Shown here: positions 2,293 to 51,886 of the stretch, in pieces
Position numbering within the stretch: the stretch's first letter is position 1
Layout of the letters: each line of letters starts with the position of its first letter
DNA from: a bacterium
Lineage (GTDB): Bacteria > Bdellovibrionota_C > UBA2361 > CALJRW01
Assembly: GCA_031385045.1 (NCBI GenBank)
Contig: JANNBC010000054.1
Location: forward strand, 61,562 to 125,561
Direction of reading: 5' to 3'
DNA: 64,000 nucleotides
Position numbers and translations under genes: made by a program
The notes under the pieces: model-generated
What the model saw: the letters and a program-made list of their open reading frames with translations, nothing else
Database searches by the model: none
What the model was told of the DNA's origin: nothing

Positions 2293-2474
2293 AAATCTTA
2301 AACACAGGTAAATTAAACTTTAAGCTTGCTAACTAATAATAGTGAAAATAATTAAAGTTGTTAAGAGCAAAATATGAAATCGCCTTAAAGGCAAAGAGTC
2401 ACTCTCTATTTCCGTACTCAAGCATTTTGACTGGAACAATCTTACCAATATGCTAAAGTTCCTTAGCTTATAGA

Positions 2475-2519
2475 GAATCCAAAAATGGATTTCCTTAAAG
2501 GAAATCCATTTTTGGATTC
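2475..2519. repeat. Perfect palindrome, 21-bp arms, 3-nt loop
   Basis: gaatccaaaaatggatttcct-taa-aggaaatccatttttggattc. Confidence 0.95.
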
Positions 2520-2520
2520 G

Positions 2521-2666
2521 GGCTTTTCAAATCCTGGATTCCTGTCACGCCATAGCTTTAGCGCAGGCGGGATATCCAGGTTTGAATGCCTAAAAACAAC
2601 AAATATAGTCAACCCAACAGGAATTCCGAAAAAAATTTTCGGAAATTCATTCTTGGGTTTACTATA
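2521..2666 (+). repeat. Composite repeat copy 1: REP-containing hairpin plus 59-bp TA-flanked mini-MITE (2606-2664)
   Basis: Near-identical to 49580-49724; ends TA-TAGTCAACCCAA...TTGGGTTTACTA-TA. Confidence 0.9.
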
Positions 2667-5665: not shown

Positions 5666-6880
5666 ATGTATACCAGCAAAACTAATTTCCTAGACTTAGC
5701 TAAACAATATGCTTCCCCGCTTTATGTTTATGAACTTGATCAAGTTAAAAAACGTTATGAAGAACTAAAAACTGGCTTAAATTATAAGCAACTCAAAGTT
5801 CATTACGCCATGAAGGCTAACTACAATCTTCATCTATTAAAATATGTTAACTCCCTTGGAATTGGCATTGATGCTGTGAGCCCAGGGGAGATTTACCTAG
5901 CACTGAAAGCTGGCGTTGCTAAAGAAAATATTATTTTTACGGCAAATAATTTAACAAACGAAGAAATTTCTGAAGCCCAAGCCCTGGGAGTACTTTTTAA
6001 TCTTGGTTCGCTTTCTGAAATTAAACGCTACGGAGAATTATTTCCGAATCAAAAAATTTGCATTCGCGTTAACCCTGATGTGATTGCTGGAAGCCATGCT
6101 AAAATCCAAACAGGTGGACCTTTAAGTAAATTTGGCATCCTACTCGAACACCTAAATGAGGCCCTGAGCATATGTAAACAATACAACCTAACTGTTATCG
6201 GTGTTCACAAACACACTGGTTCTGGAATTAAAGATCAGGAAAAATACTTACAAGCAGTTGATAACCTCCTAGCTATTGTTACGCCAACAAATTTTCCAGG
6301 CTTAGAATTCGTAGATTTTGGAGGAGGCCTCTTCGTCCCCTATCATCCAGAAGAAAAAGAAATTGATTATCAAAAGTTTGCCCCAGCAGTTTTAAGTAAA
6401 CTTCTAGCTACAAATAAGCTTTTTGATCGAGAATTAAAATTATACTTCGAGCCAGGAAAATTTTTAATTGCTGAAGCTGGGCACCTAATCATCCAAGTTA
6501 ATACGATTAAAGATAATAATGGACATTTAATTGCTGGAACTAACTCTGGATTTAATCACCTAGCACGACCTGTGATGTACGATGCCTATCATCACATCGA
6601 AAACCTTAGCAATCCAAATGGAGTAACTAAAACTTACGATATTGTCGGTAATATCTGTGAGACGGGAGACAACTTCGCTTCCTCCAGATCTCTGCCTGAA
6701 ATCCGCGAGGGAGACTTCTTAGTGATCCATAATGGTGGAGCTTACTGCTACTCTATGGGAAGCGTCTATAATCTAAGAACTCTACCTGCTGAAATCTGCA
6801 CACTAGCCGGCGCAGTTGTCTATCATCGACCAAGACAGTCTAACCAAGACTTTATTAACAAACTCTATGACACTTACTAA
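5666..6880 (+). CDS. lysA: Diaminopimelate decarboxylase
   Basis: YAMKAN, H.HTGS, DFGGG, EPGK, GNICETGD, GAY..SM.S.YN. Confidence 0.95.
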   Translation: MYTSKTNFLDLAKQYASPLYVYELDQVKKRYEELKTGLNYKQLKVHYAMKANYNLHLLKYVNSLGIGIDAVSPGEIYLALKAGVAKENIIFTANNLTNEEISEAQALGVLFNLGSLSEIKRYGELFPNQKICIRVNPDVIAGSHAKIQTGGPLSKFGILLEHLNEALSICKQYNLTVIGVHKHTGSGIKDQEKYLQAVDNLLAIVTPTNFPGLEFVDFGGGLFVPYHPEEKEIDYQKFAPAVLSKLLATNKLFDRELKLYFEPGKFLIAEAGHLIIQVNTIKDNNGHLIAGTNSGFNHLARPVMYDAYHHIENLSNPNGVTKTYDIVGNICETGDNFASSRSLPEIREGDFLVIHNGGAYCYSMGSVYNLRTLPAEICTLAGAVVYHRPRQSNQDFINKLYDTY

Positions 6881-7712
6881 AATTCCTTTTACCAAAATGC
6901 ATGGCTTAGGTAATAATTATATTTACCTTAATTGCCTGGAAGCTAGCCCCGAGAACCCAGAAGACCTAGCAATTAAAGTCTCCGATCGAAACTTTGGAAT
7001 TGGTAGTGACGGACTAGTTTTAATCATGGGAAGCGAACAGGCAGATTTTCGCATGCGAATGTTTAACTCTGACGGATCGGAAGCACAGATGTGCGGGAAT
7101 GCTGTTCGCTGTGTTGCGAAATACCTTTATGAAAAAAATCTTACAAAGCTAACCAGTATCAAGTTAGAAACTAAGGCTGGGATTAAAATTCTAAACCTAA
7201 AGTTAAAAAATAATCTAGTAACAGAAGTCAGTGTTGATATGGGCGCCCCAATCCTCAAGAGTAAGCTTATTCCCGTTGCCAGCGAAGAACCGCAACTGAC
7301 TAACTACCCAATAGAATTTTTTGGTGAGCAATTTAAAGTCAACGCTGTCTCCATGGGGAATCCCCATCTCGTAATTTTCGTACCAGAAATAACGGATCGT
7401 CTAGTACTTCAACTAGGACCAAAAATTGAACATCACCCGCTATTTCCAGAACGAATCAATGTAGAATTTGCTAAAATAATCAATCGCCAAACAATCGCCA
7501 TGCGTGTATGGGAACGTGGTAGTGGTGAAACTCAAGCCTGCGGAACAGGAGCCTGTGCGGTGGCAGTAGCCTCTGCCCTAAACAACTTAAGCGATCGTCA
7601 AGTTACCATAAAACTACTTGGAGGTGACTTAGATATTAATTGGCAAGAAAACGATCATGTCATTATGACTGGGCCTGCGGAGTTTGTATGTGATGGAGAA
7701 TTTTACTACTAG
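6867..7712 (+). CDS. dapF: Diaminopimelate epimerase
   Basis: FTKMHGLGN, MCGNA.RC, MGNPH, ERGSGETQACGTG. Confidence 0.95.
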   Translation: MTLTKIPFTKMHGLGNNYIYLNCLEASPENPEDLAIKVSDRNFGIGSDGLVLIMGSEQADFRMRMFNSDGSEAQMCGNAVRCVAKYLYEKNLTKLTSIKLETKAGIKILNLKLKNNLVTEVSVDMGAPILKSKLIPVASEEPQLTNYPIEFFGEQFKVNAVSMGNPHLVIFVPEITDRLVLQLGPKIEHHPLFPERINVEFAKIINRQTIAMRVWERGSGETQACGTGACAVAVASALNNLSDRQVTIKLLGGDLDINWQENDHVIMTGPAEFVCDGEFYY

Positions 7713-7715
7713 TAG

Positions 7716-8207
7716 CTAGCGATAGATATCCTTACGATGTCCTAATTTAAGGATATAGTAAACCCAAAAAGTAATTTCCGAAAAATCAGCAAAAATAAAT
7801 ACCTCAGGAGTCAATTGAATCCCTGAAGGAATTAGTATAATTCAAGAACGATCCTTGCTAAACCTTCGGTTTAACAGAGTTTATTCTTGGGTTTACTATA
7901 TTTTTCTTTTGGCTCCCTCTGGTCGCTAATATAGTCATAACTCTATAATTTTAATTTCCTAACGGAAATTACTTTTTGGAATGACTATAATAATTAACTT
8001 CTTATTTTCGACACTATAAATGACGCGATAGTCTCCAATCCGAACTCGATAGAGATCCTCATATCCCGAAAGTTTTTTATGTCCAAAGGGATAAGGATTA
8101 AGCCCTAGCTGGACTATCACACTAACAACTCGCTGTTGGTAAGACTTACTAATTTTCTTTAATTGCTTTTCAGCTGTTCTAGATATTTCAATCTGAAACT
8201 TAGACAT
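7716..8207 (-). pseudogene. relE: RelE/ParE-family toxin split by a MITE (5' part 7990-8207, 3' part 7716-7755)
   Basis: KKLSG...YRVRIGDYRVIY; the missing ILKLGHRKDIYR* lies on the far side of the insertion and rejoins in frame. Confidence 0.9.
7756..7987. mobile_element. 232-bp composite MITE, 25-bp imperfect TIRs, TA target duplication
   Basis: Ends TAGTAAACCCAAAAAGTAATTTCCG and (reverse complement) TAGTCATTCCAAAAAGTAATTTCCG; TA at 7754-55 and 7988-89; inverted copies at 29675 and 47246. Confidence 0.92.
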
Positions 8208-8418
8208 TGATTTTCAACTCACTTAACACTTCACTAAAAGGTCGGGTGGGTTCTTTTCTGAGCTTTGGGATGTCTGCAATATCAGCGACCTCCTCTAGTT
8301 TTTCAATAATACAATCCTGAACAAAGCGATTGATAATGAAACCTTTTGACTTACAATATTTCTTCAAGGCTTCAGCTATTGCTTGATCGAGACGGGTAGT
8401 AATTTGTTTTGTAGCCAT
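8200..8418 (-). CDS. Ribbon-helix-helix antitoxin (RelB-like)
   Basis: 72 aa, N-terminal KQITTRLD strand then helices; overlaps the toxin start. Confidence 0.8.
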   Translation of the reverse strand: MATKQITTRLDQAIAEALKKYCKSKGFIINRFVQDCIIEKLEEVADIADIPKLRKEPTRPFSEVLSELKINV

Positions 8419-8423
8419 AACTT

Positions 8424-8453
8424 ATGGTATCATTTGATGTCATTTGATGTCAA
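8424..8453 (-). promoter_or_regulatory. Sigma70 promoter of the TA operon with tandem operator repeats, probably leaderless
   Basis: TTGACA-18nt-TACCAT (with TGn extension), 5 nt before ATG; tandem catttgatgt x2 at 8431-8450. Confidence 0.7.
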
Positions 8454-8514
8454 GTTAAAAACCAAACGTAACCCTATTCTGCAACTATCTAGTTGGTAGA
8501 AATATTAAAATACT

Positions 8515-8543
8515 TTGACAATCCTCCCTGAGATCATTAAATT
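8515..8543 (+). promoter_or_regulatory. Sigma70-like promoter of dapL
   Basis: TTGACA-17nt-TAAATT. Confidence 0.55.
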
Positions 8544-8575
8544 GTGCCCTAAATTTCATTACTTCAATCTTAAAT

Positions 8576-9784
8576 ATGGTTCAAAGAAACAAAAATATCG
8601 CGAAACTCCCTGCTGGCTACCTATTCCCTGTGATTGCTAAGAAGCGTCGTGAATATCAAGAAAAAAATCCTACAGCTAAAATTATTTCACTAGGAATTGG
8701 TGATACTCCTGGGCCACTTCCAAAAAACATCACAGATGGCTTAGTAAAAGCTGCCGAAGGAATGGGAACAGCAGAAGGTTATTCTGGCTATCCAGACTTG
8801 GGCTTGCTAAAGCTTCGACAGTTAATCAACCAAAGATTTTACAACAACCAATTAGACCCTGACGAAATTTTGATTTCGGATGGAGCTAAGTGTGATGTCG
8901 GAAGACTTCAAGTCCTCTTTGGTGCTGATGTAAAAATTGCCGTGCAAGATCCTGTCTATCCGGCATATGTTGATTCCAGTGTTGCACTTGGACAGACTGG
9001 TGAATTTAACCCAGAGACTAAACAGTTTGGAGGCATTACCTACTTACCGTGCAATCCCGCCAATAATTTCTTTCCAGACTTAACTCCAGCAAAAAATTCA
9101 GATTTGATTTTTATCTGCTCCCCTAATAATCCAACAGGGGCTTGTGCAAATCGCCAACAACTAACTGAGTTGGTTGCCTTTGCCAAAGCTAATAAGGCCA
9201 TCATTATGTACGATGCTGCTTACAGCGTCTTCATTCAAGATCCAGAACTTCCAAAATCAATTTTTGAAATTCCCGGAGCTAAAGATGTGGCGATTGAAAT
9301 GCACTCTTTTTCTAAGTCCGCTAGCTTTACTGGAGTTCGCTTAGGTTGGACAGTTGTACCGAAAGACTTAAAATTTGATGATGGATCTTCCGTATTAAAT
9401 GATTGGATTAGACTAACAAACACAATCTATAATGGGACCTCACACATTACTCAGTTGGGTGGGATTGGAGCACTGGAAGATTCTGGCTGGGAAGAAATCA
9501 AGCAAATGACTGCTGAGTTTTTAGAAAATGCCAGGTTAATCAAAGACGCATTAGTTAAAAAAGATGTCGAAGTTTATGCTGGAGAAAACGCTCCCTACCT
9601 TTGGGCTAAAATCCCAGGCCGAACATCTTGGGAAACTTTTGATTATCTCCTAGAGCAAGCTCAAATTGTTTGTACTCCTGGTTCTGGATTTGGAATTGCA
9701 GGCGAAGGATTTGTTCGCTTTAGTGCCTTTGGCAAAAGAGCTGATATCCTAGAAGCAATCAAGCGACTAGAAAAGTTTCTATAA
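8576..9784 (+). CDS. dapL: LL-diaminopimelate aminotransferase
   Basis: GYLF..I, IISLGIGD, SDGAKCD, CSPNNPTG, SFSKSASFTGVRLGW, PGSGFG..GEGF.R.SAFG. Confidence 0.95.
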   Translation: MVQRNKNIAKLPAGYLFPVIAKKRREYQEKNPTAKIISLGIGDTPGPLPKNITDGLVKAAEGMGTAEGYSGYPDLGLLKLRQLINQRFYNNQLDPDEILISDGAKCDVGRLQVLFGADVKIAVQDPVYPAYVDSSVALGQTGEFNPETKQFGGITYLPCNPANNFFPDLTPAKNSDLIFICSPNNPTGACANRQQLTELVAFAKANKAIIMYDAAYSVFIQDPELPKSIFEIPGAKDVAIEMHSFSKSASFTGVRLGWTVVPKDLKFDDGSSVLNDWIRLTNTIYNGTSHITQLGGIGALEDSGWEEIKQMTAEFLENARLIKDALVKKDVEVYAGENAPYLWAKIPGRTSWETFDYLLEQAQIVCTPGSGFGIAGEGFVRFSAFGKRADILEAIKRLEKFL

Positions 9785-29652: not shown

Positions 29653-29674
29653 TTCATACAGACTACAATTAATA

Positions 29675-29904
29675 TAGTCATTCCAAAAAGTAATTTCCGT
29701 TAGGAAATTAAAATCATAGAGTTATGACTATAGTAGCGACCAGCGGGAGCCAAAAGGCAAATAGTAAACCCAACAAATTAAATCAGTTAAACCGAAGGTT
29801 TATCAAAGGCCTTTAATCAGTTCGATGCTAATCCCAATGATCTCACTAGTTCAAATATTATTATTCAGTAAACACTTTTACGGAAATTAGTTTTGGGTTT
29901 ACTA
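29675..29904. mobile_element. 230-bp composite MITE with a divergent internal core
   Basis: Same ends and first module as 47246-47510; TA at 29673-74 and 29905-06. Confidence 0.88.
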
Positions 29905-30041
29905 TATTTAACTGTAGTTGATTTATGGACTTACGCAAATGTTTTTTTGAGTTAGGGGCAAAACCAATTTGGCTTCCCCCTAACTAGCGCAATAAGTTGG
30001 CTAAACTTATAAGATAGCTGCCCTAGAAAGCAGAAACTAAA

Positions 30042-47167: not shown

Positions 47168-47245
47168 ATTAAACTAGCAAATCCTTCCAATCTTCGGTCT
47201 TTACATCTAGACTCAAACTGACATAAAATTTTGGCTACCCTCATA

Positions 47246-47510
47246 TAGTCATTCCAAAAAGTAATTTCCGCTAGGAAATTAAAATCATAGAGTTATGATT
47301 ATAGTAGCGACCAGAGGGTTTAACCCCCGAAGCCCGAAAGGCGAAGGAGGTAGCCAAAGGAAAAATATAGTAAACCCAAGTATAAACTCTGTTAAACCAA
47401 AGGTTTAGCAAGGATCGTTCTTGAATTATACTAATTCCTTCAGGGATTCAATTGACTCCTGAGGTATTTATTTTTGCTGATTTTTCGGAAATTACTTTTT
47501 GGGTTTACTA
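47246..47510. mobile_element. 265-bp composite MITE carrying a 33-bp REP insert (47319-47351)
   Basis: Near-identical reverse complement of 7756-7987 plus the insert; TA at 47244-45 and 47511-12. Confidence 0.92.
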
Positions 47511-47532
47511 TATTCCCTTCCAGGATCTTGCT

Positions 47533-48309
47533 ATGCACTTAATCAAAAAAACTATTCTTACTTTAATCACATCATTGCTGATTAGTCTGCTCTTTACTAG
47601 CTGTGGAAGTATTAATAAATTATTAAAAGCTGATCCCGCCCCACCAGCAGGATTTATTGAACATCCTGAATATTTAAAAGAGTGGCGTGACCACGCCCCG
47701 TTTCATGGTATTTGGTTTCAGGATAAAGAAACATTTGATCAAATCAGAGGCAAATTTAAAACAGTTTATTTTGCGCCCGTCACTACTGACTTTATTGAAA
47801 AACAGGGTTGGTGGAGTTCTCTAAATACTGCTGACTACGAAAGTTATAAAAAAGAATTAAGCATGTTAGCTCGCTACACAAAAAAATCTATGGAAAAAGC
47901 TTTTCGAACGGATCCCAAGAAAGCACAAAAGGTTGTTAAGTCACCACAAAAAGATACAATAGTTTACGAGATAGCGATTGTGGAAGTAATTGCTACCAAA
48001 GCGCATCTCAATGCGATTGGCTCAGTACTAGGGGCAGTCGTGCCAGGTGGCGGCCTTGTAGCATCAACTGCTAAGGGAAGTATTGCAATTGAAGTTAAAG
48101 TTTATGATGGTGAAACTAATGAGCTAATGATTGCCTGGGCCGATCGAGAGCAAGACCCAAGCACAATCTTTAGCTTAGCTGATTTTAGTTGCTTTGATCA
48201 TGCCAAGGAAAGTATCGACAACTGGGCAGAGCAACTAGTGACTCTTCATAATTCAACAACCAAAGATCGTGTTGAAGATAGCTCTCCATTTAGCTTTCTA
48301 CCCTTTTAA
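47533..48309 (+). CDS. DUF3313-like lipoprotein
   Basis: Lipobox FTSC; GF.., G..A.E....D..T.E, W..Q patterns. Confidence 0.7.
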   Translation: MHLIKKTILTLITSLLISLLFTSCGSINKLLKADPAPPAGFIEHPEYLKEWRDHAPFHGIWFQDKETFDQIRGKFKTVYFAPVTTDFIEKQGWWSSLNTADYESYKKELSMLARYTKKSMEKAFRTDPKKAQKVVKSPQKDTIVYEIAIVEVIATKAHLNAIGSVLGAVVPGGGLVASTAKGSIAIEVKVYDGETNELMIAWADREQDPSTIFSLADFSCFDHAKESIDNWAEQLVTLHNSTTKDRVEDSSPFSFLPF

Positions 48310-50698: not shown

Positions 50699-50880
50699 AA
50701 GGAGAGTAATAGATTGTCCCCTAAAAACTTTAATCTCCATTTGCGAAACCTTCAATGCTTAATAAGTAAATGGATTTAATATTCATAAAAACAGTGAAAT
50801 AAACTAGTTAACTATTTAATATTACATTAGAATTAAAAATTTTCTTGAATAAGTGTATAACTAATTATATACTTAAACTA

Positions 50881-51261
50881 ATGAAATTTTCTCAATCTAA
50901 TATCTTTAGTACAACAAACCTAGAAATTATCCGATGTCTCTACCTAAGTGACTTCCCAGTTCCACTTCGCGAAATCGCTTATCGAACTAATCTTCAAATT
51001 CGAACAGTGCAACTTGCACTGCAAAAGTTTTTAAAACAAAAGATTGTTCAAAAAAAACGACAAGGACAATGGACTTCTTTTACTATTAGGAAAGATGATC
51101 CCTATATTATTTTGATTAATGAATTTATTGAAAAGCAAAATATTATAGAATTAAATCTTGCTTCTACACGATATTCAGAAAGAGCTACATATGCCCTCCC
51201 AAATATTCTTAATATGTATGAATTAGTAACGAGAGCTAAAAAAGATTATGAATCTAGGTGA
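50881..51261 (+). CDS. Winged-HTH protein (putative antitoxin/regulator)
   Basis: LREIAYRTNL..RTVQLAL..F HTH; overlaps the next gene. Confidence 0.7.
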   Translation: MKFSQSNIFSTTNLEIIRCLYLSDFPVPLREIAYRTNLQIRTVQLALQKFLKQKIVQKKRQGQWTSFTIRKDDPYIILINEFIEKQNIIELNLASTRYSERATYALPNILNMYELVTRAKKDYESR

Positions 51262-51886
51262 TATTTTTGAATATGCCATTAAAGAACTACAAGAACGTAA
51301 ATGTGAATTTGCGGTTGCTGGTGGATTAACCTCGTCCGTGTATCGTAGCGAAGTTAGATTAACGATGGATGCGGATATACTAATTTATTCTGGTAGCGAC
51401 TCTCAAAAAGTTGCCGAAGAAATTTTAAAAAAAATTAATTACTCCGCCTCTCCAGCAACAATTGCCAATCTTTCACCCGCTCCTCGTATGAATAAGAAAT
51501 CCCTACCAAATCTGATAATTGTAGGTCGCCCTAAATTGCAGGGAGATATTGGGCTTGATTTCATTCTCCCAGATATGCCTTGGTTTCCAAAAGCAATTAC
51601 TCGAGCACAAAACAATTTAATTGATTTTGGATTTGGAAAAATTCCTTGTTTAACAATTGAGGATTTTATTATTTCAAAGTTATTTGCTTATCAATTATCT
51701 CCAAAAAGAATCAAGGATCTAGAAGATCTAACTTCAGTCTTTCAGAAAGATGCGAAACTAGATCTTTCCTATCTTTGTGCTGAGCTAGAAAGATTAAAAA
51801 TTGGAATACCAAAAGAACTCTATCAGATAGCCCCTAAAGCACTAAGAGTCCTGACCAAAAGAATAAATGGAAAAGCTAAATCATAA
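51248..51886 (+). CDS. Pol-beta superfamily nucleotidyltransferase (AbiEii/DUF6036-like)
   Basis: AVAGG....Y...R.T.D.D, ED.I.SKL, R.KD..D. Confidence 0.78.
   Translation: MNLGDIFEYAIKELQERKCEFAVAGGLTSSVYRSEVRLTMDADILIYSGSDSQKVAEEILKKINYSASPATIANLSPAPRMNKKSLPNLIIVGRPKLQGDIGLDFILPDMPWFPKAITRAQNNLIDFGFGKIPCLTIEDFIISKLFAYQLSPKRIKDLEDLTSVFQKDAKLDLSYLCAELERLKIGIPKELYQIAPKALRVLTKRINGKAKS

Follow-up and report, generated by a model that had tools for sequence, protein, structure and literature searches.

Insertion of a TA-flanked MITE with IS630-type ends into a RelE-family toxin gene of a Bdellovibrionota genome, with predicted loss of toxin activity

Introduction

Short mobile repeats comparable to the element described here are known from several bacteria. 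RUP of S. pneumoniae is short and non-coding, carries ends like those of an IS630 element (IS630-Spn1), has been proposed to be mobile in trans and is linked to gene disruption, as set out in the accessible part of PMC3049150, and it has TA termini with target duplication (PMC2229807, available sections). For the Correia/NEMIS elements of Neisseria, the same sections of PMC2229807 describe inverted ends of ~24 bp, TA termini and size classes defined by an internal segment, as well as stem-loop transcripts and in-frame gene fusions. ISY100, an IS630-type element, inserts into TA with duplication of the target, and 30-bp ends suffice for its cleavage and transposition; among its products, 34 of 39 had the normal TA duplication, two had AA/TT duplicated and three had TA on one side and A on the other (PMC2170065, accessible part). 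The relevant toxin family is RelE/StbE (TIGR02385), to which RelBE of E. coli belongs (PDB 4FXE, 4V7K, 2KHE, 3G5O), with the antitoxin gene preceding and overlapping the toxin gene and with basic active-site residues in the toxin. R81 is the general acid of E. coli RelE, both R81A and Y87A cause loss of function, and the same is reported for R85A and Y89A in RelE1 of M. tuberculosis (PMC12620021, accessible part).

The locus studied here shares these properties and departs from each system in certain respects. It lies in a 64,000-nt stretch of DNA (the window) from a Bdellovibrionota genome (G000) of 2.83 Mb in 61 contigs that is 95% complete. Unlike RUP, which is 107 bp long and simple, the element family in this genome ranges from 55 to 269 bp and is built of hairpin modules with inner end-like sites, and the IS630 with matching ends is found in relatives instead of in the same genome. 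Its optional segment measures 33 bp as opposed to 50 bp in Correia/NEMIS, the comparison being one of published descriptions. Unlike ISY100, it is a MITE without a transposase, and a 3-nt loss with both TA copies kept, as considered below for this site, is not among the 39 ISY100 products in the accessible part of PMC2170065. Finally, in contrast to E. coli RelBE, the C-terminal segment equivalent to R81/Y87 is cut off and the antitoxin is a DUF6290 protein with a weak match to NF046040 (21.4 bits, cut-off 50). A search from which most subscription literature was outside found no published report of this MITE family or of a MITE in relE; a truncated zeta toxin appears in the accessible part of PMC12136351. 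The event itself is an ordinary MITE pseudogenisation of a known kind, while the family is new to the literature searched.

Results and discussion

Structure of the insertion and of the split gene

A 232-bp, TA-flanked element parts the last 12 codons of a RelE-family toxin gene from the first 73. The element consists of the following parts:

7756..7987: MITE, 232 bp, non-autonomous; no ORF of at least 60 aa wholly inside; as RNA it folds into a long hairpin (z -5.3)
7754..7755: left copy of the duplicated TA target
7988..7989: right copy of the duplicated TA target
7754..7780, plus strand: left terminal inverted repeat including TA; 23 of 27 nt the same as the IS630 ends of locus L060
7963..7989, minus strand: right terminal inverted repeat including TA; 21 of 27 nt the same as the L060 IS630 ends; gives the new C-terminus
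7754..7900: module A, 147 bp, reaching from the outer end to an inner end-like site
7901..7929: spacer, 29 bp; 7 of 13 composites have an extra 33-bp hairpin here
7930..7989: module B, a 60-bp hairpin that holds an inner end-like site as well as the right outer end

The inverted ends are 27 nt long and 89% complementary, and the right one almost extends to the new stop codon of the toxin (7959-7961). The toxin gene is thereby present in two pieces:

7959..8207, minus strand: toxin ORF as found, RelE/StbE family, 82 aa (73 native and 9 insertion-derived codons), with F81 and no residue 85
7716..7755, minus strand: cut-off 3' piece of relE, comprising a TA copy, the last 12 codons (with the Arg of GHR and a Tyr four residues on) and the original stop

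The last 12 codons and the stop occupy 7716-7754, past the element, and the family-level relative L002 agrees with this detached tail at 11 of 12 residues. The toxin ORF as found ends in PKSNFR*, and its residues 74-82 consist of TA plus element sequence; the original prediction had recognised this foreign tail and listed it as IPKSNFR*, two residues short of its full extent. As it had also proposed, a scripted deletion of 7756-7989 fuses the two halves in frame into an open 85-residue product, and removal of 232 or 236 nt, the only two other lengths tried, leads to a frame shift. In-frame rejoining alone is no proof of the original allele. The 82-aa ORF reaches 44.5 bits against PF05016 (cut-off 23) and 32.4 bits against TIGR02385 (cut-off 27.9); because this last cut-off is passed, automated counts would score the module as intact. 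On the opposite side of the element, its frame runs in phase with the detached tail (window 7716-7793, minus strand), where a short fusion peptide would be possible on paper.

Locus and genome setting

Upstream of the toxin lie two further features:

8200..8418, minus strand: RelB-like antitoxin (DUF6290), 72 aa, intact, overlapping the toxin start and colinear with the L002 antitoxin
8424..8453, minus strand: sigma-70-like promoter match, 10/12 with an extended -10, similar in L002; a consensus match alone

The same layout of an antitoxin followed by an overlapping toxin is seen in L002. The antitoxin and promoter had been proposed to have stayed intact, which agrees with the open 72-aa frame and with a predicted promoter resembling that of L002. 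Since the scan returned seven promoter-like sites compared to 3.8 expected, the promoter match is weak taken alone. No terminator match was found in 7600-8620 and no Rfam match in 7600-8600 at E 0.1.

The locus sits between dapF and dapL in a run of lysine-biosynthesis genes (names from ORF reading and Pfam matches). As a same-genus genome (G001) has a 338-aa ORF without NCBIfam match between dapF and dapL (L021:2360-3376) and gave no toxin match, the toxin-antitoxin pair is accessory at this site, with dapF-dapL acting as a variable slot. The locus would be a clear natural example of an accessory toxin-antitoxin module likely switched off by a MITE. Elsewhere in the window (50845-51886), a helix-turn-helix-like ORF overlaps a nucleotidyltransferase-like ORF, labels that come from reading the ORFs, in a layout that could be that of another toxin-antitoxin pair.

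The pre-insertion site and the order of events

Reconstruction of the empty site was assessed with natural toxin relatives, 35 of which were found with the N-terminal 72 residues alone and 150 more, more distant, with the same query, giving 185. The rejoined 85-residue form covers the whole profile of the 35 relatives and scores 133.5 bits versus 118.2 for the ORF as found, so the expected full-length RelE match was obtained, yet the alignment contains a one-residue gap at the junction. From V62 to R81 (profile positions 62-81) the rejoined form spans 19 residues. This stretch is covered in 158 of the 185 relatives (26 do not span it and one was not aligned), and its length is 20 residues in 150, 18 in six, 17 in one, 23 in one and 19 in none. 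Profile alignment was used for this count instead of a regular expression for the spacing, which left 59 of 185 unscored. L002 has a matching TA at the same codon boundary, with the gap falling on the 5' side of the TA. Relatives lacking the element therefore align across the junction, as the original prediction would have it, and are one codon longer at the site, so the claim of an exactly rebuilt empty site did not hold up: removal of the element and one TA probably does not restore the original sequence.

The family's target duplication offers a control. At another insertion of this genome (G000:C6:105016-105160), removal of the element plus one TA leaves a sequence that aligns gaplessly with the G001 ortholog at both the DNA and the protein level. 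Because the same removal is colinear with an ortholog there, the TA duplication rule appears to hold for the family, and the one-codon shortfall would be local to the RelE site. Of three loci compared with G001 it was the only informative one, the insertions on C2 and C55 falling where gene ends have diverged; a set of 21 element pairs taken from relatives proved too diverged from, or unmatched in, the present genome for an empty-site comparison. A metagenome scan for an element-free allele returned four distant loci with 45-61% identity, and the hoped-for empty allele did not appear, with no joint that skips the element in 4 of 4 runs (all of them contigs, which drop rare variants).

Based on these comparisons, it is probable that a MITE of 232 bp, for which an IS630-family transposase acting in trans is the likely mover, entered a TA located 13 codons before the toxin end and, by prediction, inactivated the toxin, and that the adjacent codon was likely lost too. 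In such an event the transposase would have bound the 27-nt ends, excised the composite from its donor and joined it to the target TA, which would thereby have been duplicated. Translation would now enter the insertion for nine codons and then stop; element-coded residues would finish the last beta-strand, with the Arg (R81 equivalent) and the Tyr (Y87 equivalent) stranded past the stop, and the truncated protein would fold without cutting mRNA. The three nucleotides 5' of the TA would most likely have been lost in repair of the insertion, or else later through slippage in a short ATT run, when the gene no longer mattered. The insertion may have been tolerated because loss of the toxin would cost little and the antitoxin would need no change. 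As regards the proposal that the MITE disarmed the toxin, the gene is split and a knock-out likely; as no element-free allele was seen, the order in which insertion came before the 3-nt loss is one that we infer.

The reverse order, in which the 3-nt loss came first and the MITE then inserted into a gene already dead, is unlikely. It draws on the length count, where forms shorter than 20 residues lose two or three residues, and the absence of a 19-residue span from all 158 relatives means that the loss of one residue may itself disable the toxin. The ATT run is moreover prone to slippage and rich in TA (of 28 TA sites in the gene, three fall within the 15 nt that end at the junction), and pneumococcal repeats accumulate in pseudogenes according to the accessible text of PMC3049150. 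Nevertheless, two independent events would be needed within ~12 nt of a 258-nt gene, and the frame shows no visible lesion beyond the insertion and the missing codon.

Less probable still is the reading favoured by the original prediction, that the rejoined 85-residue frame was the true and active gene before insertion. This would be the simplest outcome of TA duplication, which held at the other insertion; the frame is open and the full profile covered, and natural hairpins can be somewhat shorter, as in 7 of 158 relatives. Against this, the length occurs in 0 of 158 relatives, the gap falls at the junction, and the closest relatives (58-64% identity) have 86 aa. The idea of a reversible switch was dropped: the searches turned up neither a partner transposase nor an empty allele, and excising the element precisely would yield the short form.

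Predicted activity of the truncated toxin

Position 81 of L002 aligns with position 81 of E. coli RelE. All 150 relatives whose span is 20 residues have an arginine at position 81, which also served as the alignment anchor, and a tyrosine follows four residues past it in 124 of 125 scorable relatives. The expectation that equivalents of the catalytic Arg and Tyr lie in the lost tail was thus borne out, the R81 position being assigned by alignment to E. coli RelE. The 82-aa ORF has P77, F81 and a final R82 and retains K45, R54, R56 and R61, and the R81 and Y87 equivalents are not in the translated product. A fold predicted from a 40-row alignment (mean pLDDT 80.7) preserves the strands and helices up to residue 77 and has a tail of low confidence (47 for the last block); the single-sequence fold is weak (pLDDT 66). 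The R81 and Y87 equivalents are encoded solely in the detached piece, and the 82-aa product is predicted to fold but to be inactive.

Some residual activity of the truncated protein is conceivable, since its final Arg, at 82, is shifted by a single position from the canonical 81. That the fusion is still a weak toxin, with its last strand completed by the element and an Arg at its terminus, is nonetheless very improbable. The predicted strand 70-77 is intact, K45, R54, R56 and R61 are kept, R82 is adjacent to the canonical position 81, and the TIGR02385 score stays above its cut-off; set against these are F81, P77 and the lack of a tyrosine equivalent, and single substitutions at both positions impair the two RelE toxins studied in the accessible part of PMC12620021.

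The assembly itself gives hardly any reason for doubt. Contigs do end within the element and none of the listed pieces covers the whole stretch, as would suit a split or missing codon produced by misassembly at a repeat, yet the left junction is found without differences in contigs X1 (6600-7782) and X2 (7495-7778), and the right junction in X1 (7960-8472) without differences and in X3 (7906-8067) with four differences and no gaps. The runs holding the stretch are sediment metagenomes from two studies, with no RNA run among those listed; X2 and X3 come from the second study and X1 may be the source sample, and only the X3 piece has at least 31 letters on both sides of its junction.

The element family in this genome and in relatives

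A profile of the element ends found 95 sites in this genome and one in the reversed genome, a control that excludes chance. At a stricter threshold the sites form 36 pairs, giving elements of 55-269 bp, and leave 17 ends unpaired; one pair added by hand from the unpaired list brings the family total to 37. TA is present at both ends in 31 of these 37. Composites of 234-269 bp make up 13 of the 37 and combine a larger module, a spacer and the 60-bp hairpin, with one inner end-like site per module. Nearly all near-full matches to the modules lie inside paired elements (6 of 6 for module A, 12 of 13 for module B), and the 13 composite copies have differing flanks, which together supports movement of the composite as a single unit, as originally proposed. 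Further members in the window are:

47244..47512: closest sister copy, 269 bp including both TA; identical at 229 of 236 aligned nt (97%), with the 33-bp insert in addition
29673..29906: a less similar sister copy (84% identity), 234 bp long
2469..2666: member of a different size class (198 bp) that has the same ends

Element matches occur in 4 of 40 relatives, with many in G001 and in the family-level relative G002. An end-pattern scan returned 31 loci, many from Bdellovibrionota, whose flanks match the present genome at ~67-84%. A ~100-bp element with a near-identical end is also seen in an uncultured Firmicutes (L038:95 onward), which hints at a wider spread of this IS630 clade; L038 was rejected as an IS, being a short element that carries the same end.

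Several copies touch genes. An ORF at window 47452-48309 has its listed TTG start inside the sister element, so that its first called residues are element sequence. A 145-bp member (G000:C6:105016-105160, L091) is located at the start of a lipoprotein-like gene, within the part that resembles a signal peptide, where a through-running frame joins the downstream gene with a new ATG and may supply a new N-terminus. At G000:C2:6046-6191 (L090) the element overlaps the 3' end of the coding region of a glycosyltransferase-like gene, in its last codons, and gives its stop, with the same PKSNFR tail as in the toxin, and at G000:C55:55035-55089 (L092) it likewise overlaps the last codons of a ligase-like gene and gives the stop (both labels by reading). 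An unpaired end of the 198-bp class at window 49724 (minus strand) belongs to an element apparently truncated on the far side. Another repeat, of ~170 bp, comes directly after family ends at two places, G000:C54:208740 onward and C5:5916 onward; at C54 it seems to be nested in a 145-class element.

Tentatively, and with more doubt than confidence, the element could be viewed as a miniature composite transposon that assembled itself, in a family that grows by accretion and not by internal deletion of an IS: hairpin modules of 55-147 bp with IS630-type ends would dock beside each other and beside the parent IS, capture spacer DNA and unrelated hairpins and travel as one. The lost codon may be the trace of an irregular insertion by IS630 that spanned two TA sites lying three bases from each other.

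Candidate mobiliser

An intact IS630 of 1174 bp is present in G002 (L060:1380-2553; NF033545 205.9 bits, cut-off 100). Its ends are identical over 27 nt including TA, and no notable inner match to the MITE was found. Owing to the near-matching ends (23 and 21 of 27 nt), an IS630 of the L060 type is the likely mobiliser of the MITE in trans. NF033545 was above its cut-off in 7 of 41 genomes, and the end profile was carried by only two of 15 IS630 loci scanned, both from the same family. The IS630 of G001 is 70% identical to that of L060 and is cut by a contig end; its right end scores 27.2 on the element profile and has a hairpin module beside it. In G002, a decayed IS630 lies ~230 bp from a 155-bp composite. 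The present genome (95% complete) yielded no IS630 transposase with matching ends by PF13358 or by search with the L060 protein, hence the candidate is known from relatives only. Weak IS630-profile matches in this genome were rejected, as their source is an IS3-like element of two overlapping frames (G000:C2:66500-67615; label by reading). The proposed IS630-type insertion into TA is backed by the IS630 with matching ends in a relative and by the colinear empty site elsewhere. The family in Bdellovibrionota relatives is thus paired with a candidate IS630 transposase of matching ends, which makes mobilisation in trans testable.

That the element is instead a REPIN-like hairpin doublet moved by a RAYT-like HUH nuclease of the genome can practically be set aside: it is built of hairpin modules and the genome has two Y1 genes and no IS630 found, yet an element end lies within ~1.5 kb of 0 of 15 Y1 loci, IS630 elements bear the ends directly and TA flanks 31 of 37 copies.

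Related IS630 elements occur at L068:1100-2029 (G003) and L062:1288 (G021), with 41-59% identity to L060; their ends share the same first six letters and differ further in. Lone sites in the present genome, for example G000:C12:9438 and C28:19382, look like the L068 end and could belong to a second MITE family.
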